Shown: positions 28,882 through 46,096 of the stretch, piece after piece
Layout: every line of letters starts with the position of its first letter
Numbering within the stretch: the stretch's first letter is position 1
Source of the DNA: an uncultured Pseudomonadales bacterium
GTDB taxonomy: Bacteria; Patescibacteriota; Microgenomatia; UBA1400; PJMF01
NCBI GenBank assembly: GCA_964432115.1
Contig: CAYSMC010000024.1
Location: 1-62,020 of the forward strand
DNA length: 62,020 nt
Direction: 5' to 3'
Notes under the pieces: model-generated
Told to the model about the DNA's origin: nothing
Database searches by the model: none
Seen by the model: the letters and a program-made list of their open reading frames with translations, nothing else
Position numbers and translations under genes: made by a program

Positions 28882-29478
28882 TTAGTCGTTAAAAATTTTC
28901 ACTAGATTTTTGTTTTTTCCATCTTCAAACAAGAAATGTTTGATCAAGCCCAAACCCTTTAGGTGGTTAGGATTGTGTTTATCAAAGTGAATGGAGAAGA
29001 TATCCTGGCCCTTAATCCGATCATAAGCCAAGTGAATGTGGCCGATGCGCAATGATTTTTTATGATTACCGCTCGTAGAAATAAATCTAGCCAGAATTTG
29101 TCGTGGTTTGAAATTTTGTAATAGTTTTTTATTATCTTGATGAATTTGCGCAAAAGGACCAGTGTTGAGCCAGTTATCTATTTCCACATTAAATACCCCC
29201 CTAGGGTATTTTTGGCGCAGATAAATCGAAAGTAGTAAAGATCTTTGGGTTTTATGATCGGCTAGCTGCCAAAACTTCTGAAAAAACACTTCTTTTCTCA
29301 GTTTCGCTAATTCTTTTTTAAGAGCTTCCTTGAGGAAATGATTTTTATCATCAGTGTAATCTAAAGATAGATCGAGAGGAATAATTTTTTTCCATTTTTT
29401 TTTGGGAAATTGGCGACAAGTGATTAATTGGTAGTGTTGTTGTTCGTCAAAACAACAGTAATAGCGAGTGAGAGTCAT
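28882..29478 (-). CDS. Hypothetical protein
   Basis: 198-aa ORF coupled to the upstream gene (4-nt overlap). Confidence 0.6.
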   Translation of the reverse strand: MTLTRYYCCFDEQQHYQLITCRQFPKKKWKKIIPLDLSLDYTDDKNHFLKEALKKELAKLRKEVFFQKFWQLADHKTQRSLLLSIYLRQKYPRGVFNVEIDNWLNTGPFAQIHQDNKKLLQNFKPRQILARFISTSGNHKKSLRIGHIHLAYDRIKGQDIFSIHFDKHNPNHLKGLGLIKHFLFEDGKNKNLVKIFND

Positions 29479-30929
29479 GATTGTTGTTGAACTTTGAGAA
29501 TATTGTGAGCGCCTTGATAGAAAATTTTAGGTAAGTGTTGGGTGTTGATCATGGCCTGAGTAATCCAGCTAGATTGATTGCTAATCTGACTGTCTGGTTT
29601 GGGTATTGGACGAGCACTACTGCTAATTAACTGACTTTGTTGGGTGTGAACTGGTTGTTTTTGGCTAAGGTGAATAAGCTGTTTAATAATATGATCAACC
29701 TCAACTTTTTGGCTGATGCCATATTTTTCAAAAACCGCTCGTACATTATGTTCCCATTCACCCCATTCTTTCATAGTCAGCAAAGCTGCTCTAGACAAAG
29801 CAGCATCATAAGCCATGTCTCCTGAAGGTTTGCTAATAATTACATCAGCCCAAGGAAACCCGTAGCGAATTAAAAGTTCATTGGCATCGATAATTTGAGG
29901 ATGATAAATAATATGAAATTTAATATTACTTTTTTGATGATGACGGACCTTATTGAGCCAACCGGCTTGGATAAAAGCAGCTGGGTCATGGGGACTAATT
30001 AAATTGAATTGCACTTGATATTTTTTGGCTAAGTTGCTGGCCATTTTTTGGTGATCAGCGTGGGTTCCGGTGTAATACATGAGTTCAAATTTAGGTAAAC
30101 CTACTTGGGTTTTTTTGAGAGTTGGCAACAATTGATCAAGAATTTTTTTAATTTCTTGTTTATTAGTGCCTAAGCCACCTGTGCTAATTAAAATTTTTAG
30201 AGGTTTATCACCAGTCCAAGCCTTTTTCTTTGTGGCGGTAGCCAGAATACGGGGGTCAACCGGAGGGCCGGTCACAATTACTTTATCTTGGATTTGTTGT
30301 GCAGGAATCTTAATATTTTCTGCCGCCGCCACTTTAAAAAATTCTTCTTTGGTCTGTTCATCAAAAACCATAAAGCGGATATTTGCTTTATTAGCGTTTT
30401 TGACATAATCGCTTCGTACATGAGGGTCAGTAATCATTTGCAAGACTTGTTTGCCATTTTCAGCTAAGATATTACCAGCAGCAATGTGAAAAGATAAAAT
30501 ACTTTGATCGAGATTTTGCGTTAAAAATTTAGTAGCTGGTTCAATGTTGCTCAGAATTGGCAGTTTGGAACGGCCAAATCGATCTACTAAATCTTTAAGT
30601 CCCTTGAGTATTGGTCGACGAGCAATAGTTTTACCAATTTCATCTGTTAGTCTGATTTGTTTCCAGTCTTCTTGTTTAATGTGATTGGTGGGATCTACTA
30701 ACCACGCTTTTTGGGGATCAATTTGTTTATCCCAGGCGGCGACTGCAATAGCCAGAGCCATAGAATAGTGAGCTCGGGAAAAGACTATATCTTGAATTTG
30801 ATCATTTTCCACTTCGCCATGAAAACCTTTAAGATCTTCTTTAAACGAAGCAGAAACGGTGATAATTGCTACTTTGGTATTTTCCAATAATTTTTTATCT
30901 CGATAGAGAAGGGCAAAGTCTTGTTGCAT
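29475..30929 (-). CDS. GT-B fold glycosyltransferase-like protein (MurG/MGDG synthase-like)
   Basis: VTGPPVDP, ISTGGLG, DVIISKPSG motifs. Confidence 0.6.
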   Translation of the reverse strand: MQQDFALLYRDKKLLENTKVAIITVSASFKEDLKGFHGEVENDQIQDIVFSRAHYSMALAIAVAAWDKQIDPQKAWLVDPTNHIKQEDWKQIRLTDEIGKTIARRPILKGLKDLVDRFGRSKLPILSNIEPATKFLTQNLDQSILSFHIAAGNILAENGKQVLQMITDPHVRSDYVKNANKANIRFMVFDEQTKEEFFKVAAAENIKIPAQQIQDKVIVTGPPVDPRILATATKKKAWTGDKPLKILISTGGLGTNKQEIKKILDQLLPTLKKTQVGLPKFELMYYTGTHADHQKMASNLAKKYQVQFNLISPHDPAAFIQAGWLNKVRHHQKSNIKFHIIYHPQIIDANELLIRYGFPWADVIISKPSGDMAYDAALSRAALLTMKEWGEWEHNVRAVFEKYGISQKVEVDHIIKQLIHLSQKQPVHTQQSQLISSSARPIPKPDSQISNQSSWITQAMINTQHLPKIFYQGAHNILKVQQQS

Positions 30930-31086: not shown

Positions 31087-32064
31087 ATGAATAATGCCGA
31101 AAAAAGCAGAGCCAACATTAATAATGGTCACTCTATCCCTTATTGGTCGGCTACTTTGATAGAACGGTTTGCTGGTAAAATCTTATCATTCGCTGATAGA
31201 TTCTTATTAAAAGATGATGAGGAAGTAGATAAAACCCAGCAATTAGTTAATCAGTCCAGGTATAGATTGATTAAAGAAAGAGCTTTGGGTTTAGCAGAAG
31301 ATGCAACAATTAAAGTTGCTGGAGAGCGATTTCTAAAACAGCATAATTTACCCAGATATAATAAAGTTAAATGGCCCTTAATAGAATTTTTAGAAAATTC
31401 TCAAGAACGTCTGGATAATTTTGTGAGTCCAACTGGTTTGTATTTTCCCGAGTTTATTAACCTAAAAACTGAACATAGAATTTATGCGTTGAGCCAAACT
31501 AGAGATGAAGTTGAAAAGTTTATTTTACAAATGTTGGAAGACGAGCAATGCACACCTGAAGATTATTTATTTGTGTTATCAGAATTTTGGCCCAACGATT
31601 ATGGGGGCAGTGTCATAATTAATAAAGCAGGTGATGTGTCGATAGAATTGATGAAAGGATCACACACGCCACTAACTACAGGTAGGGGTAAAATTTTGCT
31701 AACTGCTAAGAGTGATTGTTATACTAAATTATTAAAATTTATAGAATATCAAGAGATCGACCCAGACTTACAAACAGAGCTTCGTCAGACCATTAATAAG
31801 ATTCTGGCCTTAATCCCCAAAAAATCAGTGCTGGTTAGTAAACAAGTAACGGGCAGGTTTCAAGAGGTAATAGACAATGGTGATGGGCCATCTGTAAAAC
31901 TTCCTTATGCTGGTTATTTTGAATTTATTTTATCCAGGTTAAAAACCGATTCAACATTAAGACCATTTTTTATTGATGCGCGAGTTGGCAAAGCAGGAGA
32001 TAAATATTATTCTGTGAACAAAAATTTGTCAGAGGAAAATAATCTATCTCAGATGGCCCGTTAA
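31087..32064 (+). CDS. Hypothetical protein
   Basis: 325-aa ORF, no recognised motif. Confidence 0.7.
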   Translation: MNNAEKSRANINNGHSIPYWSATLIERFAGKILSFADRFLLKDDEEVDKTQQLVNQSRYRLIKERALGLAEDATIKVAGERFLKQHNLPRYNKVKWPLIEFLENSQERLDNFVSPTGLYFPEFINLKTEHRIYALSQTRDEVEKFILQMLEDEQCTPEDYLFVLSEFWPNDYGGSVIINKAGDVSIELMKGSHTPLTTGRGKILLTAKSDCYTKLLKFIEYQEIDPDLQTELRQTINKILALIPKKSVLVSKQVTGRFQEVIDNGDGPSVKLPYAGYFEFILSRLKTDSTLRPFFIDARVGKAGDKYYSVNKNLSEENNLSQMAR

Positions 32065-32089
32065 CTGCTATAATAATGCCTATTAACAA

Positions 32090-32160
32090 GGGGCGGTAGT
32101 TCAACGGTAGAATCAAGGTCTCCAAAACCTTTGATGAGGGTTCGATTCCTTCCCGCCCTG
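32090..32160 (+). tRNA. tRNA-Trp(CCA)
   Basis: GGGGCGGTAGTTCAACGGTAGAA..AAGGT-CTCCAAA-ACCTT..GAGGGTTCGATTCCTTCCCGCCCTG; TATAAT just upstream. Confidence 0.95.
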
Positions 32161-32161
32161 C

Positions 32162-32201
32162 ATTATAAAAATAGAGCTAAATTTAGCTCTATTTTTATAA
32201 T
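32162..32201. terminator. Perfect 40-bp palindrome directly after tRNA-Trp
   Basis: ATTATAAAAATAGAGCTAAA|TTTAGCTCTATTTTTATAAT. Confidence 0.7.
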
Positions 32202-32208
32202 TGATAAG

Positions 32209-32365
32209 TGAGAGGAATCGAATGCCGGAGCAATAGGGCAATCTAAAGCCCATATTGCGAGGCGGGGTCGACGGGCGCGACCGAGTGAGTAGAAGCTTCA
32301 CGAGAGTGTGAAGCTTCGTAACGAACGACCGAGCGAACCGGTGACCGATTCCTTCCCGCCCTGCA
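32209..32365. other. GC-rich multi-hairpin element ending in a 20-nt duplicate of the tRNA-Trp 3' end
   Basis: CGATTCCTTCCCGCCCTGCA at 32346-32365 equals 32143-32162; outer AGGAATCG/CGATTCCT pairing; three internal hairpins. Confidence 0.8.
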
Positions 32366-32604
32366 AAACCATTTACTCAATAATTATTTCTCTATTTTTA
32401 TCTACTAAAATCCACTTCAAATTAGTTATTTATTTATTAGGTGGTTGATAATTATTAGATATTTATATATCAAATGATATAATAAAGGTTATCAGGGCAG
32501 TAAAAAGACTTGATCTTCTTTTTAAAGCAAAAAGAAAGATGAGACTACTTTTTTCTACCTGAGCACATTAACTTCTAAGCAAAAAAAATCAAACCTAGGA
32601 GGTT

Positions 32605-32820
32605 ATGATGGATGAATTTTTTCAAATAATGATTGTTTTTGTTGGCGTTGGTCTGATAATGACCATTCAAAGCTTTAGGTTTATGCTGGAACGGGCTGGT
32701 CTTTTAATAGCTCTTTTTAGCTTATTTGCATGGTGCGTCCCAATGGCTGGTTGGCTTTTTATGTTTTATGCGGCAATCATGCAAACTATGGAAGACTTGG
32801 GAATGGAACCTCCACTCTAA
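32605..32820 (+). CDS. Small hydrophobic membrane protein
   Basis: AGGAGG SD, hydrophobic 71-aa ORF, followed by a terminator. Confidence 0.7.
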   Translation: MMDEFFQIMIVFVGVGLIMTIQSFRFMLERAGLLIALFSLFAWCVPMAGWLFMFYAAIMQTMEDLGMEPPL

Positions 32821-32846
32821 TCAGCTTAGATGAAAGAATGTGAATG

Positions 32847-32880
32847 AAGCGCCCTTTTAAAAGAAGGCGCTTTTGCTTTT
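32847..32880 (+). terminator. Intrinsic terminator
   Basis: AAGCGCC..GGCGCTT followed by T-rich tract. Confidence 0.7.
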
Positions 32881-32897
32881 GTTTTTATTAAATAACC

Positions 32898-32930
32898 AAA
32901 ATAAGTTCCAACATCCTTCACCAATCCCTC
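32898..32930 (+). repeat. Cassette-boundary repeat R1
   Basis: AAAATAAGTTCCAACATCCTTCACCAATCCCTC. Confidence 0.92.
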
Positions 32931-32990
32931 TAGCATATAAAAAGAACTAAAGGTTATTCTTTTTTGATACATGTTAGAATTAATTAACTT

Positions 32991-33401
32991 ATGAATGAGG
33001 TAGATAATGATAGGGAGAGTCCCAAACATCCTAATAATTTATCAATTATTGATCTTTGTAACATATATTTAGAGATTATTGGTCAAAGTAAGAAACATAG
33101 TGAAGATAATTGGAATACTGCTATCGATCAGCTACTGCAGATTTATGAAGACCAGCCCGATTTATTGAAAAGAGACACCATTCGTTTGTGGAATGAAAAA
33201 CCAGATATTATTATTTCTTTCTTGGCAAGAATAAATTCAACTAAAAAAACTATTGGTATGGAATCAGGATTAGATATTAAAACTGGAGATGAAGAAGCTT
33301 CAATTATGAACGAAATCGATGCTAAATTAAATGAAGAAAAAGAAAATGCTTTTCTCAAAGGTATTCTAAGTGGAAGAATCAAAGGCTCCACATCTTATTA
33401 G
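32991..33401 (+). CDS. Hypothetical protein (cassette cargo)
   Basis: 136-aa ORF preceded by TGtTAGAAT. Confidence 0.7.
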   Translation: MNEVDNDRESPKHPNNLSIIDLCNIYLEIIGQSKKHSEDNWNTAIDQLLQIYEDQPDLLKRDTIRLWNEKPDIIISFLARINSTKKTIGMESGLDIKTGDEEASIMNEIDAKLNEEKENAFLKGILSGRIKGSTSY

Positions 33402-33418
33402 TCTGCAAGAATTAATTT

Positions 33419-33904
33419 ATGATAATAGTTACTAATTCACCATTAGAAAGATGGGAAGAATATAAACAATTACGGTTAGAATCGCTTAGCGACTCACCTC
33501 AGTCGTTTCTAGATGATATTGACAAAACTCAGGAGATATCAAAAGAAGAGTGGCAAAAAAAGCTTGAAAACATATATTTTGCCGAAATGGATGGTAAGTG
33601 GGTAGGAATGATTGGTGCTTATCAGGACGAAAGATCTAAATTAAATCACATTATGAAAGTTGTAAGTTTTTATGTATCTCCAAAATATCGTGGTCATGGA
33701 ATAGGGAAAGCACTTTTGTCAGAAGTTATTGATAAATCTAAGAAAGTTAAGGGAGTTAAGAAGTTAGAATTAGGTGTAATTACCACACAGGAAGCAGCTT
33801 ATCAGCTATATTTAACTCTTGGATTTAAAAAAGTTGGTGAACAAAAGTATTCAGTTAGGGTTGGAGATAAGTATTTTGATGAATATTTAATGGAACTTTA
33901 TTGA
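33419..33904 (+). CDS. GNAT family N-acetyltransferase
   Basis: YVSPKYRGHGIGKALL, LYLTLGF. Confidence 0.92.
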   Translation: MIIVTNSPLERWEEYKQLRLESLSDSPQSFLDDIDKTQEISKEEWQKKLENIYFAEMDGKWVGMIGAYQDERSKLNHIMKVVSFYVSPKYRGHGIGKALLSEVIDKSKKVKGVKKLELGVITTQEAAYQLYLTLGFKKVGEQKYSVRVGDKYFDEYLMELY

Positions 33905-33908
33905 GATT

Positions 33909-33942
33909 AAACCAAGTTCCAACATCCTCTACCAGTCCCTGC
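33909..33942 (+). repeat. Cassette-boundary repeat R2
   Basis: AAACCAAGTTCCAACATCCTCTACCAGTCCCTGC, 4 nt after GNAT stop. Confidence 0.92.
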
Positions 33943-34003
33943 GAAATATATTAAGTCAAAGCGTTCAGCACTATTAATCTCTAATCATTTATAATAAATT
34001 TAT

Positions 34004-34531
34004 ATGGAAAAAATATATTTTGTTCGTCATGGGGAGAGTGAAGCAAATGTAGAGCGAAAATTTGCTGGGCAAAAAGAGGATTCTCCATTAACTGAGCTTG
34101 GTCGAGAACAAGCTAAACAAGCTGCTTTAGACTTATTGCATTACAATTATCAGATTGATCGAGTTATTTCTTCACCGCTCGCAAGAGCTTATAAAACTGC
34201 GCAAATATTAATCAAAGAAGCAGGCTTGGATCTAGAAATTGAAATTGATCAAAGACTAGCTGAATATGATATGGGATCACTAACCGGCACCACTTATCAC
34301 AAAATAAATTCAAGGGAGCTGATAAGTGCCGAGGGAGCAGAAGACCCTCAGGCATTTCAAGGTCGTGTACAAAGTTTATTGGATGAACTTAGTCATGGGG
34401 ATAAAAATGTATTACTAGTTAGTCACGCGGGTGTGGGGAGAATAATTGAGGTAGCTAAAAAAAGTTTAGATCCTAATGATTTTTATGATCTTGAAGCTTT
34501 GCCAAATGCAAAAATTATTGTCCTTTATTGA
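34004..34531 (+). CDS. Histidine phosphatase family protein
   Basis: RHGES, SSPLARA..TA, E..MG, VSHAG. Confidence 0.93.
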   Translation: MEKIYFVRHGESEANVERKFAGQKEDSPLTELGREQAKQAALDLLHYNYQIDRVISSPLARAYKTAQILIKEAGLDLEIEIDQRLAEYDMGSLTGTTYHKINSRELISAEGAEDPQAFQGRVQSLLDELSHGDKNVLLVSHAGVGRIIEVAKKSLDPNDFYDLEALPNAKIIVLY

Positions 34532-34541
34532 TTTTTTTGAG

Positions 34542-34573
34542 TAAGCAAGTTCCAACATCCTTCCCGCCCTGCA
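34542..34573 (+). repeat. Cassette-boundary repeat R3 (hybrid with exact tRNA-Trp 3' end)
   Basis: AAGTTCCAACA + TCCTTCCCGCCCTGCA (16 nt identical to 32147-32162). Confidence 0.93.
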
Positions 34574-34634
34574 AATGATGCATTGTGATACAATTAAATT
34601 ATTGATAAAGCCAATTTATTAAATTAAGGAAAAC

Positions 34635-34946
34635 ATGACAAGAACTAAATATTCACCAGAAATAATGAGGGAGGGTATTGAGGAGATGTTACAAAGAAAT
34701 TTTTCTTTAAAAACATATCAGAGTCCTGAATTAAACCAAGCGATTGGCAGATCAATTCAAGAAAAAGTAGCTGAAGGCTTTAATTGGGGAACTATTATTT
34801 ATCCAGTATTTGTCCCGTTTTTTGTTTCTGATGATCCTGAAATTAAGAAAAATAGGCAGCAATTCATAGAAGAACATGGTGGAGAAGAAAATATTGAATT
34901 TTATTTAATTCGCAGAACGGGTGAAATCATTGTTTTGACAAAATAA
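34635..34946 (+). CDS. Hypothetical protein (cassette cargo)
   Basis: AAGGA SD; TAA stop lies inside repeat R4. Confidence 0.75.
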   Translation: MTRTKYSPEIMREGIEEMLQRNFSLKTYQSPELNQAIGRSIQEKVAEGFNWGTIIYPVFVPFFVSDDPEIKKNRQQFIEEHGGEENIEFYLIRRTGEIIVLTK

Positions 34947-34973
34947 GTTCCAACATCCTTCACCAGTCCCTGC
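34940..34973 (+). repeat. Cassette-boundary repeat R4
   Basis: AAAATAAGTTCCAACATCCTTCACCAGTCCCTGC. Confidence 0.93.
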
Positions 34974-35011
34974 TTGATAAAATTAATTCAATTTTAGAGG
35001 AAGATAGAGTA

Positions 35012-35353
35012 TCATTTCACAAATTTCAATTGCTCAGACGACCATCTTGGTATGTTAACTAGAACAAGCTTAAGTTCTTTTCCTTTAGACCAGTATTTTT
35101 CACCTTTCTTAAAATGGTAGAAGTCGCCTTTCTCAATAATAAAATTGCCAAATTCCGAGTGAATGACTCCAGAACCACTTAACACGTAGTAAATCTCTTC
35201 ACATTCAGTGTTTACAACTCTTTTCTGTTCTGGAAATCTTCCATTAATATATGCTATTGCAAAACTTACATCTTTACTTTGAGAGTCATACTCCCAAAAA
35301 ATACATTGATCAGAATTTATTTTCTTTTTTACCTGTGATTTTTTAATTAACAT
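35012..35353 (-). CDS. Cupin domain protein
   Basis: EEIYYVLSGSG..GDFYHFKKGEKY cupin motifs. Confidence 0.85.
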   Translation of the reverse strand: MLIKKSQVKKKINSDQCIFWEYDSQSKDVSFAIAYINGRFPEQKRVVNTECEEIYYVLSGSGVIHSEFGNFIIEKGDFYHFKKGEKYWSKGKELKLVLVNIPRWSSEQLKFVK

Positions 35354-35513
35354 AATTAAACTTGATTGGTTGGTATTTTAACGTTTATCACAGTTAGTCA
35401 TTATCTATGCTGTTGACATAACCAAGTAATACTTTTACAACAAAGCTGCTTTTAATATATCAAATCTTAAAGATTTATACGATAACCACTGTATGACACT
35501 CACGTTTTTTCTT

Positions 35514-35548
35514 AAAATAAGTTCCAACATCCTTTGTTAACCTTTGCA
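35514..35548 (+). repeat. Cassette-boundary repeat R5
   Basis: AAAATAAGTTCCAACATCCTTTGTTAACCTTTGCA. Confidence 0.9.
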
Positions 35549-35602
35549 AATACAAAAAAACTTGATTCTAAGTATCAAGCTCATAAGCTATAATTATTGA
35601 AA

Positions 35603-36168
35603 ATGTCAAATAATCGATTAATTAACTCTATTGCTATAAAACTTGTAGAAAAGCCTAGTCAAACACAAAAAAAACAAATTTTTAGACTCCAACAAGAAGT
35701 TTTTTCTTATATAGATGAAAAGGAAGCAAAAGAAGATTTTTATCATCCCGAATCAGCGCATGTTTTAGCTTATCTTGGTGATGACTTAGTTTCTTGGGCT
35801 GGCGTGCATATAAGTCAGCAAGTATTTCAAGATAAAAGTATTAAATTGGGTGGCTATGGAATTTGTACCCATACTAATTATCAGGGTCAAGGCATTGGTT
35901 CTTTAGTTTCCAAAAAGCCATGGAGTATCTTAAAAATAATGGGGTAGAGGTGGCATTTTTATCAGTTGATTTAGATAATGAATCATCAATAGCATTTCAT
36001 AAAAAGAACGGATTTGTGATGCTCCCACAGAAATATTCTTGGACAAATTCTAGTGGTGAGCTCAAGGAAGATAAGGGAGCAATGATTGCACCAGTCAATT
36101 CTCAAGAGTTATTCAACTATATCTTAAAAACAAACAAAGTTTTATATGTGGGCAATGGTTATTGGTGA
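35603..36168 (+). pseudogene. Frameshifted GNAT acetyltransferase (AAC(2')/Eis-like), split at an A5 run
   Basis: First ORF ends ..THTNYQGQGIGSLVSK; second frame continues AMEYLKNNG..FHKKNGF; one extra A at 35912-35916 would fuse them. Confidence 0.8.
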
Positions 36169-36171
36169 GTT

Positions 36172-36206
36172 AAAATAAGTTCCAACATCGTTCACTAATC
36201 TCTACA
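36172..36206 (+). repeat. Cassette-boundary repeat R6
   Basis: AAAATAAGTTCCAACATCGTTCACTAATCTCTACA, 3 nt after TGA. Confidence 0.9.
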
Positions 36207-36301
36207 AAATAAATTTTTAATTTACAGTTTTTCTATATCCTGATCTTAATGTCTCAAATAAAGATAATTTAATTGCATTTAAACTCTGATAAAATAAGAG
36301 T

Positions 36302-37174
36302 ATGAAAATAGTTGAAACAAAAACTTCCAAAGGAATAACATATAAAGGACTATTGTCCGTTCCCGAAAAGAATAGTAATAAGATTATTATTCACGTTCAT
36401 GGGATGGGAGGAAGTATTATCTATAACGATTTTTATGTCTCAATGCATGAAAAATATCCGCAGAATGCTTATTCGTTTTTAGTTGGTGAAAATCGGGGAT
36501 CAGAAATTATTAAAGGTTTTAAACGAGGTGATGAGTCTGTACTTTTAGGTAATGCTTTTGAAAGATTTGAAGATTGTGTGGAAGATATTCAGGCATGGAT
36601 CAACTTTGCTGTGGAAAGAGGATACGAAGAGATTTGGTTGCAGGCTCATAGTTTGGGTCCATCCAAAGTAGCTTATTATCTAAATCAAAAAAACCCTAAA
36701 AACATTAAGGGGGTTATTTGGTTAAGTCCTTCAGATATAATTGGTCTAGTTCGCTATTCTGAAATGATAAATGAACATAAGAAGCTAATGAAAGAGGCAA
36801 AAGAACTAATAAATAGAGGAAAAGGGAATGAACTTCTTTCTGATAAGTTATGGGGAGAATATTTACTGAGTGCAAAGACTTACATTGATTTTTTTGAAGA
36901 GACAGCTAATACGGCAATCTTTAATTATAGAGATAATTCTTTGGGTTGGCAGGTTGTAAATGATATAAGTGTGCCTGTTTTTACTATCACAGGGACTGAG
37001 GATGATGGCATTAAACCAGTTATTGATCCTAAAGAAGCAATGGTGCTATTGGAGTCAGAATTAAAGAATTCCCCCAGAGTTAAAACTGTTGTCTATGAGG
37101 GTGCTGAACACAGTTTTAATGGTTTTGAGCTAAGAATAGTCGATGATGTTTTGGAGTTCATAAGTAAGGAATAA
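36302..37174 (+). CDS. Alpha/beta hydrolase (DUF1749-like)
   Basis: HVHGMGG, AHSLG nucleophile elbow, GTEDD, GAEHSF. Confidence 0.88.
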   Translation: MKIVETKTSKGITYKGLLSVPEKNSNKIIIHVHGMGGSIIYNDFYVSMHEKYPQNAYSFLVGENRGSEIIKGFKRGDESVLLGNAFERFEDCVEDIQAWINFAVERGYEEIWLQAHSLGPSKVAYYLNQKNPKNIKGVIWLSPSDIIGLVRYSEMINEHKKLMKEAKELINRGKGNELLSDKLWGEYLLSAKTYIDFFEETANTAIFNYRDNSLGWQVVNDISVPVFTITGTEDDGIKPVIDPKEAMVLLESELKNSPRVKTVVYEGAEHSFNGFELRIVDDVLEFISKE

Positions 37175-37227
37175 TTTTAATTCGTTTAACTGAAAAGGCT
37201 AGGTAAACAAATACCGTAATAAAACCG

Positions 37228-37260
37228 AAAATAAGTTCCAACATCCTTCACTAAGCTTTG
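37228..37260 (+). repeat. Cassette-boundary repeat R7
   Basis: AAAATAAGTTCCAACATCCTTCACTAAGCTTTG. Confidence 0.9.
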
Positions 37261-37371
37261 TTTGAAGGATTAACCCTCATGTTTTTCTATAATTGACTGC
37301 TGAATGTTGAAAAAGCTTCAACAGCGTTAGCAATTTCTGATTAATTAATACATTGTGATCTATTTTGATTT

Positions 37372-38550
37372 TCAGTTAAAAGTATGTATTATTAAATTTA
37401 TCCAATTTTCTTTAGTATTTTTTTGTTTTTTTTGATAATTTAAATATAAATTAAATACATGTATAACTAGCGCTAAATAGAATAATACCTCAAAAGATTC
37501 TCTCCAAATAACTAAAAATCTAAGAGTTGTAAAAAAATCTGGTAAAATTCCTAAATTATGATATAGGTCAATGAGTGACGTCCCCCGGTCTGAAAATAGG
37601 CTACGATCTGCATAGGGGTTAAAAATAAAAGTTGGTAATAAATATAATACTTCTTGACCACGAAAACAAAATAAGTTTCTCCAAGCTATTTGCTGTTGAT
37701 TTTGTGTTGGCTTACTCTTTTTTAAATATTGTCCAATGCGCCAACTGGTGAAGCCGTAAACAAAGGCAAAGATATATAAAAGAATAAAAAATTCATTTAT
37801 TTCTTTCATATTGTGAATATTTAACTCATTTTGGTAGCTATTGTTTGTTTTTACTCGCATATTTAGTAGACGCTGTCCCCAAGAAATTTCCTCGCCAATT
37901 AAAAAAATAAATATAAAAATTAAACAAACAAAAATAATTCTTAAGAAAGGATTGATTTGTCTTTTTTTGGTGTTTTTTATAGTTGCCAAAAGAACGCTAA
38001 ATATTAATCCAATGCCTAATACGACAACCTGCAGCCATTCCATAAAATTATCATCATCAGTTCCACCAAAATTAGCACTAATTTTTATAAAAACTTCAGA
38101 ATTATAGATGTAAATATAAAAACACAATAAAAGAAAACTGAAGAAAAATAATTTTGCCCAATTTTTTTTGATAATTTTCCAACCAGTAGTCAATATTTTT
38201 AGGAAATAACTAAAAATTAATAAATCAAGTAAGATTGCTTGATTAAGACCAAAATTTTTGGTGACAAATGTTGGATGTGTAAAAGCATCTATTCCAAATA
38301 AAATAATGACTAACGTAAGTGTTATTGGTAAAAAATAATGATTATTAAATTTAATTAACCACCAACCAGAATTTAGATTTTTTTTAGGAAAAAAACTCAC
38401 AAAAGTTATAGATGCTAATAGTATTGCAATAAGAAGTCTTAAATCAAATAGTAAATACTCACCAATTATACCTCGATAGTTAAGTAGCTCAATTATGCCG
38501 AGAAGAATAATTAAAAAATAGGCAATAATCAATGCTATTTTAATTTTCAT
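37372..38550 (-). CDS. Polytopic membrane protein (EEISWGQR..ELNIHN family)
   Basis: Multiple TMs, very AT-rich. Confidence 0.75.
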   Translation of the reverse strand: MKIKIALIIAYFLIILLGIIELLNYRGIIGEYLLFDLRLLIAILLASITFVSFFPKKNLNSGWWLIKFNNHYFLPITLTLVIILFGIDAFTHPTFVTKNFGLNQAILLDLLIFSYFLKILTTGWKIIKKNWAKLFFFSFLLLCFYIYIYNSEVFIKISANFGGTDDDNFMEWLQVVVLGIGLIFSVLLATIKNTKKRQINPFLRIIFVCLIFIFIFLIGEEISWGQRLLNMRVKTNNSYQNELNIHNMKEINEFFILLYIFAFVYGFTSWRIGQYLKKSKPTQNQQQIAWRNLFCFRGQEVLYLLPTFIFNPYADRSLFSDRGTSLIDLYHNLGILPDFFTTLRFLVIWRESFEVLFYLALVIHVFNLYLNYQKKQKNTKENWINLIIHTFN

Positions 38551-38633
38551 GCTGACGCTAATTGTAACATTTAAACTTTAATTAGTTTGTATCCATTATT
38601 GGGGTTATTAGATAATAAAACCATAAAAAACCC

Positions 38634-38668
38634 AAAAGAAGTTTTAACTTCTTTCACCACTCCCTGCA
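38634..38668 (+). repeat. Cassette-boundary repeat R8 (diverged)
   Basis: AAAAGAAGTTTTAACTTCTTTCACCACTCCCTGCA, colinear with R4. Confidence 0.75.
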
Positions 38669-38700
38669 GAGAAAATATGGAGGCATAGTATAATTAAACT

Positions 38701-39777
38701 ATGCATAAAAAACCACTTTTTTCGCCGCATTTTGCGAAACGCCTCAATCTCAATCAAGCGGAAATGTCAACACTGCTCAATCGGGTAGTCACAGCTTATA
38801 ATTTAGGTCAATTCATCGCAGCCAAGGGTATAGAAATTGGCTACGAAGATGTTAATATTATTCTTAAAACAAACACTGGTAAATACCTTTTAAAAGTTTT
38901 AATTGATTTTATTCTCAAAAAACCACGTTCGATAGTTGCTAGTCGACGTTATGTTGAAACTATGGAGAGCTTTCGAGCTGATGGGATTCCTGTTCCTAAA
39001 TTGTACCCAGTGGTTAATGTTTCTCAAAAAGAACAAACACTAGATACTTATTTGCTCCAACAACAGCTGCCTCACAATCATCAGCCAGTTTGGATGTTGG
39101 TCATGGAATTTTTTGCAGGAAATGATTTTATTAAGCAGCCACCTACCATTGAGGACATTAAAACAGTGGCTAAGTATCTGGCCAAGATCAATAATTCTAA
39201 ATTAGAACGTCAACCTGCCTATGATCCATGGCAACCACATTATTTCCTACGCTCTTACAAAGAGTCTGCTGACTTACTAAAAGAACCGGCAAAAAGTTTG
39301 ATTCAAGATTTATTGGAAAATTTTAAAAAAATTGATCAAAAAAAGTTACCAAAGTCAGTTATCCATGCTGATTTTATGAGAAATAATTTATTAAAGAATA
39401 ATCGAGGTCAATATTGTTTACTTGATTTTGGAGTAGTTAATTTTGGGCCAAGAATTACTGATTTAGCAGTATTTTTAGCCGGTTTTTGTATGAATCCGTA
39501 TGATTCTTTGGAGAAAAATCGCTTAGCCTATCAAGCTGGTTTAACTGCGTATGATCAAGAAATACATTTGACTGCTTATGAAAAAACTCATCTTGTTACT
39601 ATGGTACAAGCAGCTTATGCATGTTTTTACATGCCAGCTCTTTATGAAAAAATGTTAGAAAACAATCAGACAGCGGAAAATGATTACTGGATTGGTGTAG
39701 GTGAAACTGGTTTAATAATGATTCAACAGTTGGAGCTGGAGCTGGAGTTGGAGCAAGAAAGTGATATGAGGAGATAA
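38701..39777 (+). CDS. APH / type II homoserine kinase-like phosphotransferase
   Basis: IHADFMRNN and LDFG motifs. Confidence 0.85.
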   Translation: MHKKPLFSPHFAKRLNLNQAEMSTLLNRVVTAYNLGQFIAAKGIEIGYEDVNIILKTNTGKYLLKVLIDFILKKPRSIVASRRYVETMESFRADGIPVPKLYPVVNVSQKEQTLDTYLLQQQLPHNHQPVWMLVMEFFAGNDFIKQPPTIEDIKTVAKYLAKINNSKLERQPAYDPWQPHYFLRSYKESADLLKEPAKSLIQDLLENFKKIDQKKLPKSVIHADFMRNNLLKNNRGQYCLLDFGVVNFGPRITDLAVFLAGFCMNPYDSLEKNRLAYQAGLTAYDQEIHLTAYEKTHLVTMVQAAYACFYMPALYEKMLENNQTAENDYWIGVGETGLIMIQQLELELELEQESDMRR

Positions 39778-41097: not shown

Positions 41098-44000
41098 ATG
41101 AATAAAAACGGAGAAATTCATGTACCAGTCGAGGAAAAAGCAAAACAATTGAAAACAGTATCTCATTCTAATTTGCCAGAAAAAGCTATTAAACCAGAAA
41201 CTCCCGAACAATTTGCAAAACTAAAACACTGGTTTAAGGTTTTGCGTCAAATTTGTCAAGAAAGACCAGAGATAGTATTGAAAGCACTCAGTAAACTAGA
41301 AAAATCAACTGATCCATGGTCATGGGATGGTTTTTACACTGATACTTTGATAAAGGCAGAACCTCTAGCATGGGAATTGGGTGGAAAAAAACGAGCAGAA
41401 AAGCAATTTCTTGAATATGATTTAGATCCAGTTAAAACCATGCAAGTTGTGGAATTTTTGCGATCAAACGTCTCAAAGAAAGAAATTTTTAAAAAGAAAA
41501 AAGCTGAAAAAATTATTTCTAAACACTATATTCAAAGGTTCTATCAATATAAGGAACAAGATTTAGAAATTATTAAAGAATTTATTAATTCTTGTGATAA
41601 TCCTGTTCATTTATTGAAAGAAATAGAAACAATAATGGACTATTCCCATATTGGGAATCAATATTTAAAACAATTCTTAATATATGGCAAATCTCTGGCT
41701 AATAATGCTAAAGCTTTAGAAATCATAACTCAGCTCAAAAAATTTGATAATCTTGAAAAATTAGATGCCGGATCTTTAAGCTCTCTCAAAGATGAAAATA
41801 GTGAAAATCATTATTTTTTTCATAATGTACTAGATCCAATTCAATCTTTTTCACAATTAGATGAGGACATTTATCAAGAGCTATTTAGCCAAGAGAACAT
41901 TGATCATGCTCAACAACTATGGAAAAGATTGACCAAAAAGCCTCTACAAATCGCGGCTCTTTATGATTTATTAATGCTTGCTCACAATCCAAAAATTGAA
42001 TTAGCTTTTGTAGTCAATTTATCATTTCATTTAAATGAAATAGAAGGATCTCTTTTTAAATCTCCCGTGCAACTTAAAAGAGAAATAAACAAAATTGAAA
42101 TGGTTTACAAACTGTTTCCAGAGATATGGGAACTTTATAAGGAAGGTTTTAATGTAGATAATTATTTAAATCTTAGTTTATTTGATGACCAAAATAATTT
42201 ACTCAATGAGATTGAAAAAATAATTGCCGAAAAAGAAAAATTTTTAACAGTGATTAATAATAAACAGATTAGGAAAAATGCACAAATTCTTAAAAAATAT
42301 GGGTTAAGAATGTTTTTACCTAATGATGAAAAGTCTAGTCCCAAAGTAAGTCTTGATTATTTAATAAATTCCGATCCAGCTTGTTTAGAAAAAAGTTTAA
42401 TTATAGCTGACACAGGACTGTATGGAGACTTGATTGATTCTTTTTATCGACAAAATAATCTTTTTAAAGATGTTTGGCGACAAACTAAGAATTGGTTATC
42501 AGCATTTTCAGTGGAAGAGATAAATGAGGCTTTTCTACCAATAAAAAAAGAAAACAATATTAATTTAAAACCAGATCTGTCATTAATTGTTAATAACTTA
42601 GATTCAATTGAAGATCTAAAAAAGAGAGTGGCAGCCATTGTTAATCCAGACATTAGAAATTTGGTGGAAGACGAAGAATTTTTAAATAAGGTTGCTTTTT
42701 ATGAGCAGAGAGGTAGTCCTGACAAGCAAATATGGGCTCATATATTAAAAAAACCAGATTTATATATAGATTTATATCGAAATCAAAAAATATTTACGAA
42801 AAAATTAGATATTTTGCTTGAAAATAAATTTGATCTTCAGGGTTTACTTTATCCAGAGGGATTAAGTTTGTTGAATGATATGACCGAGGAAGAATTGACT
42901 CAAGCTAGTCAAGCTTTATTGACTGAAGATAATTCCTTAGGTAAATATTTAGCTGTTGATAATCTTAAAAAAGCCCGACTTCTTTCCAAATTGGACCAAA
43001 CAGAGCTAACTCAAATAGAAACTGATTTTCAATCAAATAGCACTTTTTTTAACAATTTCTATTCTGAAACATGGTACAACGATCAATATCTAAAGGCTGA
43101 AGATTTAGAGTTGTATTTAAGCTTTGATCAAGAACAAAGAGAACGGGTTTGGCAATTATTAAACTCTCTCAATGAGCGTTATGATTTTCGAAGAGGAAAG
43201 GAAATTTTTGAAAAGGATGTTCTACATGATTTAGGATTTTTATGTCGATTAAGTAATAACGAAATTCATCAGCAAAGATTTCAATTATTTTTAGATCTTT
43301 TAAACAATGAACAAGAAAACATTAATATTAATGATTTAAAAATTAGTGCCAATCAGCGAATTTTTGAGAAAATTCTAAATTTTTTAGAAAATAATTCTGA
43401 ATTGACTATTAATGACTACTTCGATGAAGAAGGAGTGGCTACTGTTAGATTGTTAAATGATTTATCTAAAATTCAGGATAAGGAAACTAATTTTTACGAA
43501 ATTACAGAGTTATTAAATGAAAAATCTCTAGCCAAGATGGATAGCATACAAAGAATTTTTTGGCAATTTTGGCAAAAACAAAACCATGGACATATAAAAC
43601 GGAGTTTATTGGAAAAGAAAGATCAATTTGATGCTTTGTCACGAGATAAATTAACAGCAAACCAGTGGTTGTTAGAGGTTAGTCAATCAGCTAAAGACAG
43701 TTTTGAAGTTAATACTGTTGGTGAAAATCAGAAAAATGTTTCAAAAACCAGACTTAGCTTAGTAGAGGAACAAGAATTTAAAAAGAAAATTTTAGAATTA
43801 GTTGTCAAGAAAAATTTAGTTTCTCCAAAATTTTATACTGTTTGTTCCGTGTTGAGACACAATCTTGATGAAAATAGTTATTTAATTGAATCTTTCGCTC
43901 CAGCTTTTAAAGAAGCATTTGGCTTTGACTTGTCGGAAGATTTTGTCAAAAAATATGATAGATTCTTTCAGAAATCACAAGGAGAAGATTTTGCTGCTTT

Positions 44001-45876
44001 AATTACTGATCACCTATCTTATTGGAAAAACAACAGTGATTTATTAAGAAAATTGGAGTTAATCGGTTGGGAGGTAAATAATTTTGATAAGTTTCGGAGT
44101 CTGGTGCAGAATCCAGAAATTAACACTGTGCTTGGGAATACAGATAAAGAATTATTAATCAGTTTATCTAGAGATATTGGTTTAAGTCCCAACAACATTT
44201 ATTATGCGAACAAAAGCTCTCTTGAGTGGTTAGAACAGAACTTAGACTCTACGGAAAGGAAAACTTTTTTCAAAAAAATTCTCAATGAAAAACCTTCCAG
44301 TTTCAATAGTTGTGTGGCAGCATTTAGATCAATAGATAAAAAAACAATTAATCAAATCATTACTGAGCCTCTTTACACCGAAAGACTTTTAGACGCTATG
44401 AGGGAATTTAATAACATTACTCCTTCTTTAATTACTGTGTATATTCTCAATCCTAGTGAAGGAGCTAGATCAGAATATCGTGAGAAAATAACCAAATTTA
44501 AAGAGGGTGTCCACATTAATGTGCCGATTATGTCTTTAGCTAAAGGTAGTGGTGGTATTGATTTTTTAACAGACATGATTGCTTTGACTTTTCCTGGAAC
44601 TAATTTTACAGAAATTAAGCGCGAATTAAGTCAATTGCAGGATCGTTGTCAAGATTTGGCCAATCTCAACATTCGTGAACAAGGCTATCAAGGACAAATT
44701 GTTTCTAAAGAAAAAATAGTACAGCTAAAAGACATTAATAAGCCAATAGATGACGGAGTAGTTAATTTAATCAAAGTGATTTTTGCCGATCAACAAGAAA
44801 AAGAATATTTAGCTTTAGGAGGTGATGACAAACTAGCTTTTCAGGGTTGGGCTAGGTTGTTGGTTGAAGCAGGAGCTACTAATCAACAAACTTTATTTAA
44901 AGATAATTTAACTGAGGTAATAGCTTGTAGTCGTGTTTCTTTGGGGGACAAAATTACGTTATTTGCTGAAAAAATGGGTGGTGACACCTCTCAAATACCA
45001 GCTAAAAATGAAGTTTTAAGTAAGGCGAAAGAATTGTTTGGTATTTATTACAAAGATAATGCGCCAGAAGCAATTGAGCTTTTTTTGCAGAAACATCAAA
45101 CAGAGGCCGATATCTTATTAAACAGATTAAGTGTTAAGAGGTTGAATAATTTAGAAAAAAACATTGCTGGTGCCAAAACAATTGATGAGGAAAGTCGGGC
45201 TAACTTTAAAGAAATCATTGAGGAATTGCGCAATAGTGGATTAGCCGAAGCAGAAAGACGGCAGTTATTAGCCAGATTATTAGCTTTTATGACTGATCGT
45301 AGCATTTTTGCTGGAACAACTGGTCTAAGAAGAAAAGTTAGTAAGGAAGCTGGTAAGATTGTTTTGCGAGATAAGGAGGGTCAAGATATCGATCCCAATT
45401 TAATTATTTCTGGGCACGTAACTAAAAATGCTGCTTCTTATTTCGCCAAAAATACAGCTGGTGTTTGCACCGCTGGAGATAAGGAACTATTTAATCGACC
45501 AGATCATTTTCATGTTAATTTAGTTAACACAGGAGGAATTGTTGTTGGAAATATTCAAGCTTATCAAACTACTTGTAACGGGCAGTCCGCTCTCATTTTT
45601 AGAGGTTTTAATCCTTCCACAAGCATTGTTTCTGCTACTAACGCTGAGATTTTGTGTGATCAGATGGTAGATATCGTTAAGCAAATTGCTGCAGATAATG
45701 ACATTACTCAGATACTAATTCCTGAGCAGGATTTTTGGCATCCTTTAACTAATCGTGTTGGTGAAGGGATAGATAAGTATTTTGCTCAAAGATTTTATCG
45801 TCCAGAAAACAAAGTTAAACTTTCATTTAATATTACAAATCGTAAAACAGTTGACTCTTTTTATCGTATCACCTAA
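41098..45876 (+). CDS. Large hypothetical protein (1592 aa)
   Basis: Long uninterrupted ORF; helical-looking body, compact C-terminal domain with GVCTAGD. Confidence 0.85.
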   Translation: MNKNGEIHVPVEEKAKQLKTVSHSNLPEKAIKPETPEQFAKLKHWFKVLRQICQERPEIVLKALSKLEKSTDPWSWDGFYTDTLIKAEPLAWELGGKKRAEKQFLEYDLDPVKTMQVVEFLRSNVSKKEIFKKKKAEKIISKHYIQRFYQYKEQDLEIIKEFINSCDNPVHLLKEIETIMDYSHIGNQYLKQFLIYGKSLANNAKALEIITQLKKFDNLEKLDAGSLSSLKDENSENHYFFHNVLDPIQSFSQLDEDIYQELFSQENIDHAQQLWKRLTKKPLQIAALYDLLMLAHNPKIELAFVVNLSFHLNEIEGSLFKSPVQLKREINKIEMVYKLFPEIWELYKEGFNVDNYLNLSLFDDQNNLLNEIEKIIAEKEKFLTVINNKQIRKNAQILKKYGLRMFLPNDEKSSPKVSLDYLINSDPACLEKSLIIADTGLYGDLIDSFYRQNNLFKDVWRQTKNWLSAFSVEEINEAFLPIKKENNINLKPDLSLIVNNLDSIEDLKKRVAAIVNPDIRNLVEDEEFLNKVAFYEQRGSPDKQIWAHILKKPDLYIDLYRNQKIFTKKLDILLENKFDLQGLLYPEGLSLLNDMTEEELTQASQALLTEDNSLGKYLAVDNLKKARLLSKLDQTELTQIETDFQSNSTFFNNFYSETWYNDQYLKAEDLELYLSFDQEQRERVWQLLNSLNERYDFRRGKEIFEKDVLHDLGFLCRLSNNEIHQQRFQLFLDLLNNEQENININDLKISANQRIFEKILNFLENNSELTINDYFDEEGVATVRLLNDLSKIQDKETNFYEITELLNEKSLAKMDSIQRIFWQFWQKQNHGHIKRSLLEKKDQFDALSRDKLTANQWLLEVSQSAKDSFEVNTVGENQKNVSKTRLSLVEEQEFKKKILELVVKKNLVSPKFYTVCSVLRHNLDENSYLIESFAPAFKEAFGFDLSEDFVKKYDRFFQKSQGEDFAALITDHLSYWKNNSDLLRKLELIGWEVNNFDKFRSLVQNPEINTVLGNTDKELLISLSRDIGLSPNNIYYANKSSLEWLEQNLDSTERKTFFKKILNEKPSSFNSCVAAFRSIDKKTINQIITEPLYTERLLDAMREFNNITPSLITVYILNPSEGARSEYREKITKFKEGVHINVPIMSLAKGSGGIDFLTDMIALTFPGTNFTEIKRELSQLQDRCQDLANLNIREQGYQGQIVSKEKIVQLKDINKPIDDGVVNLIKVIFADQQEKEYLALGGDDKLAFQGWARLLVEAGATNQQTLFKDNLTEVIACSRVSLGDKITLFAEKMGGDTSQIPAKNEVLSKAKELFGIYYKDNAPEAIELFLQKHQTEADILLNRLSVKRLNNLEKNIAGAKTIDEESRANFKEIIEELRNSGLAEAERRQLLARLLAFMTDRSIFAGTTGLRRKVSKEAGKIVLRDKEGQDIDPNLIISGHVTKNAASYFAKNTAGVCTAGDKELFNRPDHFHVNLVNTGGIVVGNIQAYQTTCNGQSALIFRGFNPSTSIVSATNAEILCDQMVDIVKQIAADNDITQILIPEQDFWHPLTNRVGEGIDKYFAQRFYRPENKVKLSFNITNRKTVDSFYRIT

Positions 45877-46096
45877 TCAATTTCCTTTTTACAAATTTGA
45901 TTACTTTTGATATATTACCAACATGAAAATTAAAACAGCTGGGAATATTGTATCAACACATCTTGGTTTTATTCCTCAATCAGCCAATGAAGCCGAGGAA
46001 ATTTTGGATCAATACGATAGAGGTCATTGAGTTGATTGTATACGAGCTCAACGCCGAGCTGCCGAAAAAAAACGCAATCGTCAAAGAAGTTAATCC

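Follow-up and report, generated by a model that had tools for sequence, protein, structure and literature searches.

A tandem repeat behind tRNA-Trp in a Patescibacteria genome, a probable attachment half-site of large serine recombinases that bounds small gene cassettes

We analysed a stretch of 62,020 nucleotides from an uncultured Patescibacteria genome (assembly GCA_964432115.1, contig CAYSMC010000024.1), hereafter the window, which is contig C24 of a 786-kb genome, 95.8% complete and assembled in 42 contigs. Behind its tRNA-Trp gene lie eight copies of a repeat, all on the plus strand between 32898 and 38669, spaced by 398 to 1406 nt and separating cassettes of about 0.4 to 1.4 kb. We consider it likely that this repeat is an element-side (P-type) half-site, together with the core, of a large serine recombinase (LSR), and that it bounds mobile cassettes stacked behind tRNA-Trp. 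A first-pass annotation of the same DNA had proposed that the repeat diverges like protein-coding sequence read on the minus strand and that it is the arm of an attP site lying inside the 3' end of a recombinase gene. Its mechanism is partly supported, being borne out in part by related genomes, and its substitution argument is not significant. The tRNA gene, the repeats (R1 to R8) and the cassettes with their open reading frames (ORFs) are arranged as follows.

32090-32161, plus strand: tRNA-Trp(CCA), found by ARAGORN and scored at 63 bits with Rfam.
32162-32365, plus strand: module of about 200 nt; a perfect 20+20 hairpin occupies 32162-32201, GC-rich sequence runs from 32202 to 32345, and 32346-32365 repeats the tRNA 3' end.
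32605-32820, plus strand: cassette 0, a 71-aa hydrophobic ORF followed by a hairpin; no match in Pfam.
32899-32932, plus strand: R1, putative P-type half-site with degenerate core CCCTCTAG; nhmmer 31.0 bits.
32991-33904, plus strand: cassette 1, a 136-aa ORF (32991-33401) and a GNAT acetyltransferase (33419-33904; PF00583, E = 1.3e-18).
33910-33943, plus strand: R2; nhmmer 29.3 bits.
34004-34531, plus strand: cassette 2, a histidine phosphatase (PF00300, E = 3.5e-36).
34543-34573, plus strand: R3, a chimera with a left half from the repeat, GTTCCAACATCCTTC, and a right half from the tRNA-Trp 3' end, CCGCCCTGCA.
34635-34946, plus strand: cassette 3, a 103-aa ORF whose TAA stop falls inside R4.
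34941-34974, plus strand: R4, the best copy; nhmmer 38.6 bits.
35012-35353, minus strand: cassette 4, a cupin-like ORF (PF07883, E = 1e-4, under the curated cut-off).
35515-35548, plus strand: R5; nhmmer 27.1 bits.
35597-36168, plus strand: cassette 5, a GNAT gene divided between the overlapping frames 35597-35947 and 35920-36168, with Pfam matches on both pieces.
36173-36206, plus strand: R6; nhmmer 33.2 bits.
36302-37174, plus strand: cassette 6, an alpha/beta hydrolase (PF12146, E = 1e-8).
37229-37262, plus strand: R7; nhmmer 31.5 bits.
37372-38550, minus strand: cassette 7, a 392-aa hydrophobic (membrane) ORF; no match in Pfam or NCBIfam.
38635-38668, plus strand: R8, the last and most diverged copy, with intact core CCCTGCAG; nhmmer 27.7 bits.

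The repeat is a block of about 34-36 nt, with the window consensus AAAATAAGTTCCAACATCCTTCACCAGTCCCTGC. A 19-mer taken from it matched at 7 places with no more than 3 mismatches, where shuffled sequences predict 0.01, and a profile search of the whole 786-kb genome detected only these eight copies, the window having none downstream of R8. The right half of the chimeric R3 is identical to the last 10 nt of tRNA-Trp, whose own 3' end, GGTTCGATTCCTTCCCGCCCTGCA, can be read as a B-type half-site followed by the core CCCTGCA. When the whole window was scanned with Rfam at the gathering threshold, tRNAs and one L10 leader were found and nothing else.

To establish its distribution, we scanned 286 genomes belonging to the same order for a pattern of the repeat (labels G, L and C denote related genomes, loci fetched from them and contigs, respectively). 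At least two matches on the same strand were found in 26 genomes, as compared with 3 for a reversed-pattern control. Thirty-six repeat-bearing loci were fetched from these relatives and tallied as two sets of 18; all 111 profile matches of the first set fell on a single strand per locus. A tRNA-Trp(CCA) gene lies directly upstream and in the same orientation at 25 of the 36 loci (13/18 and 12/18), and the loci with no adjacent tRNA-Trp are mostly cut by contig ends. Among them, L036 has its tRNA-Trp 6.1 kb upstream with an inserted element between, the array of L019 (genome G053) sits behind tRNA-Ser(CGA), the sole upstream tRNA of L051 is a tRNA-Lys 3.7 kb off, and L041 is a weak match. The largest array, with 18 copies, belongs to G222 (L026). 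Every tRNA-Trp gene terminates in CCTGCA, and so does the repeat at its right end. At the tRNA-Ser array of L019 the left arm is unchanged and the right end, or core, agrees with the tRNA-Ser terminus. Rightward of the core, no sequence is conserved among cassettes.

The spacing within the repeat and within the tRNA differs by a constant amount. The distance from GTTC to TGCA was 19 nt in each of the 25 tRNA-Trp genes measured and 24 nt in each of 58 repeats, the count being made on repeats of at least 25 bits with both landmarks while copies lacking a landmark were left uncounted. With the centre set inside CCCTG, GGTTC.AAC of the repeat falls at positions of about 17 to 25 and GGTTCGA of the tRNA at about 12 to 20. 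In the part of Rutherford et al. (2013, PMC3783163) used here, the motif bound by the zinc-ribbon domain of serine integrases is placed 5 bp nearer the crossover in attB than in attP. Judged from these sequences, a single enzyme family appears to have its P-type half-site in the repeat and its B-type half-site in the tRNA end. Such a pair would account for the likeness between repeat and tRNA, for the 5 extra nucleotides and for the near-absence of length changes, and no reading frame is needed for it. In four LSR elements, the P arm was compared by eye with the P' side, and the symmetry was only partial.

A recombinase overlapping the tRNA gene was found in relatives, as the first-pass annotation had anticipated in placing attP inside the 3' end of a recombinase gene. 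In G158 (L071 and L103), an LSR of 576-578 aa is encoded on the opposite strand, converges on tRNA-Trp and has its stop codon inside the tRNA gene. Its tail, ...ISTLQGWRESNSRQGFWRPLFYH, is the antisense of the tRNA, with the core read as L-Q-G; the last 19 codons or so are antisense tRNA in the very register proposed by the annotation (…STLQGGKESNPH…). For the tRNA-Trp of the window, this register gives exactly the MQGGKESNPH of the annotation, and MQGGKESNPHQRFW in a fuller reading. The order of features in G158 is tRNA-Trp, LSR, about 4.4 kb of element genes, a first canonical repeat and then the array, and the two ends of the element share CCCTGCAAA. The core had been placed near TGCAGGG; indeed, the tRNA side and the repeat side share CCCTGCA(AA). 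When the LSR is read across the far-end repeat in the same register, it would end in QGLVEDVGTYFLHPDTMLSC instead of QGWRESNSRQGFWRPLFYH. The predicted swap of the enzyme's C-terminus upon integration follows from these two tails, the antisense-tRNA one and the repeat-encoded one.

Two further layouts associate an LSR with the repeat. In G044 (L068), tRNA-Ser(GGA) is followed by a converging LSR, about 3 kb of DNA and a repeat with the usual left arm whose core matches the end of tRNA-Ser, the block shared by both ends being CTCCTCCGCCA. In contig C26 of G053 (L069), the LSR is again followed by the repeat, and the tRNA end would lie beyond the contig end.

Homologues of the G158 enzyme were then collected. 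Five close ones, with 57-60% identity, were detected among the 286 genomes, including one in G005, which belongs to the genus of the window and has an array. Those with enough flanking sequence (G005, G045 and G251, as well as G158 itself) all abut tRNA-Trp. The G005 tail, ...STLQGGKESNPHQRFWRPLFYR, is the antisense-tRNA reading, and the last 30 nt of the G005 tRNA-Trp are identical to those of the window. More distant homologues end inside tRNA-Gln, -Asn, -Ser or -Met; altogether, the LSR stops inside an antisense tRNA (Trp, Gln, Asn, Ser or Met) at 10 of the 16 loci for which the frame could be recovered. Nine database homologues of the C-terminal third were retrieved, seven with an antisense-tRNA tail and two cut short, and the database homologues of the LSR carry the Resolvase and Recombinase domains (PF00239 and PF07508). 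The annotation had left open whether a serine or a tyrosine recombinase would abut tRNA-Trp and had suggested a search for proteins ending in QG[LV]V[KE]DV[GR]T[YW]F or QGGKESNP: the enzyme is a serine recombinase with an antisense-tRNA tail, and the ending QGLVKDVGTYF was seen in none of the nine database homologues.

PF07508 was detected in 42 of 61 relatives. Its presence was considered as a correlate of the arrays and rejected, since it does not track array presence in these 61 genomes. Two LSRs are found in the genome of the window. The first (contig C31, 555-2223) has 536 aa, ends in ...ELRRVRDSNP and stops 28 nt inside an antisense tRNA-Ser(GGA); it appears to be an integrated element of the same kind at another tRNA, and the contig ends just beyond. 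The second (contig C10, 4216-5658) has no tRNA beside it. We also noted a tyrosine recombinase truncated by the contig end (contig C29, 4065-4403), and no IS110-type recombinase (PF01548) was detected in this genome. Neither a recombinase in or near the array nor an integrase remnant was found in the window.

The annotation took each repeat copy for an orphaned integrase tail, a view that the relatives do not support. Junctions joining repeat, core and an LSR stub, with the minus-strand reading ...VISTLQG directly followed by LV.DVGT.., were detected on 4 metagenome contigs and at only 3 of 125 repeats of the genome loci. These stubs lie to the right of the core, that is, on the opposite side from the repeat arm.

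We also examined whether the divergence of the repeats is coding-like. The eight repeats and their twelve-residue minus-strand translations were exactly as the annotation had listed them: LEGLVKDVGTYF, SQGLVEDVGTWF, KQGLVKDVGTYF, LQRLTKDVGTYF, KQSLVKDVGTYF and LQGVVKEVKTSF for R1, R2, R4, R5, R7 and R8, respectively, (H)LQGGKDVGTCL for R3 and L*RLVNDVGTYF for R6. The 3 nt missing from R3 reflect its chimeric origin and not an in-frame deletion; in relatives, a few copies differ by 1 nt (e.g. L017:9508 and L052:9689). A conserved spacing that resembles frame keeping is equally explained by the fixed geometry of serine-integrase half-sites. In the window, 7 copies were compared to their own consensus, leaving out R3 as a chimera. 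Substitutions fell 15, 7 and 15 times on codon positions 1, 2 and 3, and the codon differences comprised 11 synonymous, 15 non-synonymous and 1 stop. The codon-position bias that had been proposed as a test over many copies was then calculated on 110 unique copies from 35 loci, derived from 112 copies of at least 20 bits and leaving out the tRNA-Ser array. Mean column entropies by phase were 0.61, 0.76 and 0.42, and a permutation test for 3-base periodicity gave p = 0.13. Coding-like divergence is upheld neither in the window nor in its relatives.

These figures bear on the idea that the repeat is kept by selection on its minus-strand peptide, as the recombinase tail QGLVKDVGTYF, which we regard as unlikely. 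It is true that synonymous changes take a larger share in this frame than in any of the other five (142 of 344 differing codons), that real LSRs read the core in it, that the G158 enzyme would end in QGLVEDVGTYFLHPDTMLSC if read across its far-end repeat, and that the motif DVGT[YF] recurs at a tRNA-Ser element. Yet the 344 codons also hold 187 non-synonymous and 15 stop differences, and the most variable column of the core (C/G/T/A) is a first codon position, yielding G, R, R or a stop. Frames that stay open across the copies are short, with a median of 19 codons and a longest of 90 (n = 130), and no tail of this kind was found among the nine database homologues. Third positions such as the T's of GTTC are near-invariant, which suggests a constraint at the DNA level.

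The cassettes have the features of exchanged material. The array strand carries 132 of 174 cassette ORFs. Among 145 array ORFs of at least 70 aa, we found 6 GNAT, 5 Fic, 4 NUDIX and 3 methyltransferase proteins, together with HIT and CYTH domains; the 25 commonest of the 55 families detected include no recombinase. Whole cassettes, from repeat to repeat, share 79-92% DNA identity between genera and occupy different array positions, and one two-gene cassette is present in five genomes; in contrast, the conserved protein beside tRNA-Trp shares only 40-50% amino-acid identity between genera. From the window, the start of cassette 2 is 92% identical to L016 of G005 and the whole of cassette 5 is 91.7% identical over 674 nt to a G005 cassette, each being found at another array position there.

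Several side observations concern the cassettes. The G005 counterpart of the cassette 5 GNAT is one frame of 188 aa, and contigs of a co-occurring relative have one extra base behind 35916; for these reasons the GNAT gene of the window looks frameshifted. The repeat supplies the stop codon of many array-strand cassette ORFs, which end at its TAA or TAG; L018 has five of these, L017 two and the window one, at 34944-34946. In G222 (L026, 13147-16655), a pair of cassettes of 1116 and 616 nt is tandemly duplicated with 99.8-100% identity. Finally, contigs from four public runs of two studies were aligned to 31500-39500 at 90% likeness. One contig each in X1 and X2, two of the data sets, joins 32929, in R1, to 35555, just past R5, with 8 other letters between, and one contig each jumps back from 36193 to 33909, with sides of 25 and 81 letters. 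Because of the many base differences in 35599-36150, the rearranged contigs are ascribed to a co-occurring relative with a G005-like cassette order; they are a weak hint of another cassette order and not evidence of excision in this strain. Gaps in the coverage carry no information.

Such an arrangement recalls integrons. An integron-like platform would use a tyrosine recombinase (IntI-like, or two Xer-like enzymes), with tRNA-Trp as attI and the repeat as attC. The co-orientation of the one- and two-gene cassettes, the integron-typical cargo (GNAT, Fic, NUDIX and methyltransferases), the many cassette ORFs that stop at a TAA or TAG within the repeat and the presence of two conserved tyrosine recombinases in every genome examined speak for it. 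Against it, the 484 kb of array loci contain no tyrosine recombinase; PF00589 matches are on other contigs or far from the arrays, at least 89 kb away in G222. The repeat also has no attC-like hairpin potential: its mean folding z-score, computed with flanks on 78 copies, was -0.15, from which we deduce that the site acts as duplex DNA, as serine-integrase sites do. The conserved protein beside tRNA-Trp carries glycosyltransferase-like motifs and is not a recombinase, and the 5-nt offset relative to the tRNA end fits serine-integrase geometry. We therefore hold a tyrosine-recombinase integron to be very unlikely. A likeness of the repeat to dif-like sites was also considered; it was weak and the comparison was dropped.

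The same folding data concern a role at the RNA level, in which the repeat would serve cassette transcripts as terminator, processing site or tRNA-like 3' tag. In favour of this role, the repeat directly follows plus-strand ORFs and resembles the 3' half of a tRNA. However, it folds no better than chance and has no match in Rfam, cassettes on the opposite strand carry it in unchanged orientation, and its core changes with the type of the adjacent tRNA (Trp or Ser), as that of an attachment site would. An RNA-level role is in our opinion extremely improbable.

A distinct element, the module of about 200 nt, accompanies the tRNA and some of the repeats. It generally comprises a hairpin, then about 145 nt of GC-rich sequence and lastly 19-20 nt copied from the 3' end of the local tRNA; in the window, this last part (32346-32365) is an exact 20-nt copy of the tRNA-Trp 3' end. 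The module directly follows tRNA-Trp in the window, in L034 (5770) and in L035 (5777). It follows array repeats five times in G222 (one being at L026 13184-13382) and twice in L031 (1170 and 2916), and a related module occurs in L053 of G002, at about 5630-5811. A tRNA-Ser version was detected in L019, after tRNA-Ser (5362), with a second, partial copy further inside the array (8261). The 5' end of the module can pair with its tRNA-like 3' end in the fashion of an acceptor stem, the pairing varying with the type of tRNA (Trp or Ser), and its internal hairpin displays compensatory changes. Rfam scans by E-value of 32050-32950 and of the G222 module gave nothing credible. The module may represent either a small RNA resembling a tRNA or a landing site that can move.

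Taken together, these observations lead us to the following scheme, which we favour as the probable origin of the arrays. The repeat would consist of a P-type left half-site of about 28 nt, AAATA[AG]GTTC.AACATCCTTCAC.A.T, and of the short core CCCTGCA, which the tRNA-Trp 3' terminus shares. In the mobile elements of this order of Patescibacteria, the 3' end of the LSR gene would span the element's own attP; the elements would integrate at the end of tRNA-Trp, and those of sister clades at other tRNAs. After integration, the LSR gene would converge on the tRNA, its last 19 codons or so being antisense tRNA, and the far end of the element would keep the P half-site and the core. Repeated integration at one tRNA, probably with mobilisation in trans of integrase-less cassettes, would build a stack of 0.4-1.4 kb cassettes, each closed by a copy of the half-site. 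The array of the window would be one such stack, with eight sites and no cognate LSR left in the assembled genome. The sequences themselves show how the array is built and conserved, the overlap of LSR and tRNA genes in relatives and the 5-nt difference in spacing; we infer that this LSR clade cuts the sites and that crossover takes place within CCCTGCA, and likewise the way in which cassettes devoid of an integrase are moved.

A number of points weigh against this scheme. Three element layouts underlie the link between LSR and repeat, and a single one of them is at tRNA-Trp. The 95.8%-complete genome of the window has no LSR of the tRNA-Trp clade, its best match reaching 36% identity over the N-terminal half. 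Only 2 of the 26 array genomes, G158 and G005, hold an LSR of this clade; it is also held by G213 and G196, which have one pattern match each, G213 reaching 3 repeats by profile. About 484 kb of array loci contain no similarity to recombinases except the G158 element. The left arm is near-constant although the LSRs are about 30% identical (a figure obtained by matches to the same two queries), which is unusual if protein-DNA recognition alone fixes it. Viral contigs scanned for the repeat and for the junction of repeat, core and P' gave 0 hits each, so that no free attP form was recovered. Most internal sites are not complete attP sites, because their right flank is not conserved. Lastly, canonical serine integrases recombine attP with attB only, and not attP with attL or attR, so that stacking would require a relaxed pairing, a directionality factor or regenerated B-type sites. 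Since most array genomes lack an LSR of the tRNA-Trp clade, the arrays would be either fed by visiting elements or largely fossil.

In another explanation, the repeats are old scars on which no site-specific enzyme acts any longer, and shuffling now proceeds by RecA-type homologous recombination, for instance after natural transformation, the 36-nt repeats and the tRNA serving as homology. The scarcity of cognate LSRs in array genomes agrees with it. So do the R3-type chimeras, which were found in two genomes, an R3-like one also separating unrelated cassettes in G002 (L053); their halves are joined within TCCTTC, common to repeat and tRNA, as expected from crossing-over in a short homology. 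The tandem duplication in G222 is likewise compatible with it. Nevertheless, functionless scars should decay in AT-rich, streamlined genomes, and the 34-nt block with its exact 24-nt spacing is kept over 36 loci from many genera; moreover, a homology of 36 nt is short for efficient RecA exchange. We find this explanation unlikely.

Returning to LSR half-sites as the basis of the arrays, the R3-type chimeras and the 200-nt module may bear on how stacking occurs. A more elaborate version can be imagined in which an LSR drives an integron-like capture of genes. The 3' end of tRNA-Trp would be the primary site and the 34-nt block the cassette site, one-gene cassettes devoid of an integrase being moved in trans and traded between genera. 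The C-terminal 20 or so residues of the enzyme would act as a switch between an antisense-tRNA form, when integrated, and a P-arm form, when free, and B-type landing sites would be restored within the array by the companion module, taken as a tRNA-like RNA of about 145 nt that ends in a copy of the tRNA 3' end. As a whole, we judge this version possible and yet doubtful.

The surroundings of the array were also inspected. On the minus strand beside tRNA-Trp, 29475-30929 encodes a 484-aa protein with a weak match to DUF6938 and none in PDB or NCBIfam; its invariant motifs resemble those of a GT-B glycosyltransferase. It was considered as a candidate recombinase and rejected, as it accompanies a tRNA-Thr/Tyr/Thr cluster in both arrangements encountered. 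In most genera the protein lies upstream of tRNA-Trp, and in one genus (L028, L029 and L033) it is inverted together with the tRNA cluster and found on the far side of the array. A 325-aa ORF at 31087-32064 was set aside, having no family and no homologue at other loci. From tRNA-Trp to the homologue of position 45877 of the window, the distance is about 4.7 kb in G004 (L040), of the same genus, as compared with 13.7 kb in the window, indicating that the variable region extends past R8. This further part includes a kinase-like gene (38701-39777), a ParB-like ORF and a 1592-aa ORF (41098-45876).

The genomes of Patescibacteria are tiny and leave little space for accessory genes, the trading of which is poorly known in this group. 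A conserved hot spot behind one tRNA, with up to 18 copies of the repeat in one genome and contents common to several genera, would rank as a main channel of gene flux in the group. The elements would also provide a natural set of serine integrases that target the ends of tRNAs and have their attP and attB half-sites legible in genome sequences, and an integration that rewrites the enzyme's own tail is a possible built-in switch of directionality or stability. Our search of the literature on integrons, cassettes, LSRs and tRNA islands in Patescibacteria, or candidate phyla radiation, returned no description of these arrays (supplementary files were not covered).

Among known systems, the sites of LSRs such as those of A118/LI, Bxb1 and phiC31 resemble the present ones in being duplex sites of 40-50 bp used without accessory sites. 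The distal motif common to P and B half-sites, placed 5 bp further out in attP by the portion of PMC3783163 cited above, is matched by the pair of repeat and tRNA. The LSR gene is beside the site in the relatives and not in the window. Unlike in those systems, integration here is targeted to a tRNA 3' end, the integrase ORF extends over its own attP and has its tail altered on integration, and P-type half-sites occur in tandem without integrase genes, the right half-site being unconserved.

Prochlorococcus tycheposons integrate at tRNA genes, newcomers displacing older elements outward and leaving attachment-site repeats between the remnants, and 27 of 937 cases use a large serine recombinase, according to the sections of the preprint on which we draw (bioRxiv 10.1101/2020.12.28.424599). 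As described there, partial tRNA copies separate the tycheposon units, each of which has several genes, those for integrase and replication included, whereas the separator here would be an element-type half-site and the units have one or two genes without integrase. In the window, a full tRNA-Trp stands at one end, true partial tRNA copies are found only at 32346-32365 and in R3, and the other seven separators are not tRNA fragments.

Integrons are alike in their co-oriented, promoter-proximal cassettes next to a fixed primary site, in their cargo and in the sharing of cassettes between distant hosts; they differ in their IntI tyrosine recombinase and in attC folding, both of which were tested and neither encountered here, and in that the primary site here is a tRNA end. 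In staphylococcal islands of the SCCmec type, Ccr large serine recombinases integrate at the 3' end of a conserved gene, and tandem arrays of these cassettes include recombinase-less pseudo-cassettes with direct repeats overlapping the coding 3' end. There, the overlapped coding end belongs to the host rlmH and not to a recombinase, and the units span tens of kb. The integrase gene of SSV1-type viruses is split by integration, and mycobacteriophages possess an integration-dependent immunity. As here, integration alters the product of a gene that spans attP; the integrases are tyrosine ones, however, the SSV1 gene is divided in two, and the mycobacteriophage repressor loses a tag. The arrays described here extend known tRNA-island and cassette-array systems.

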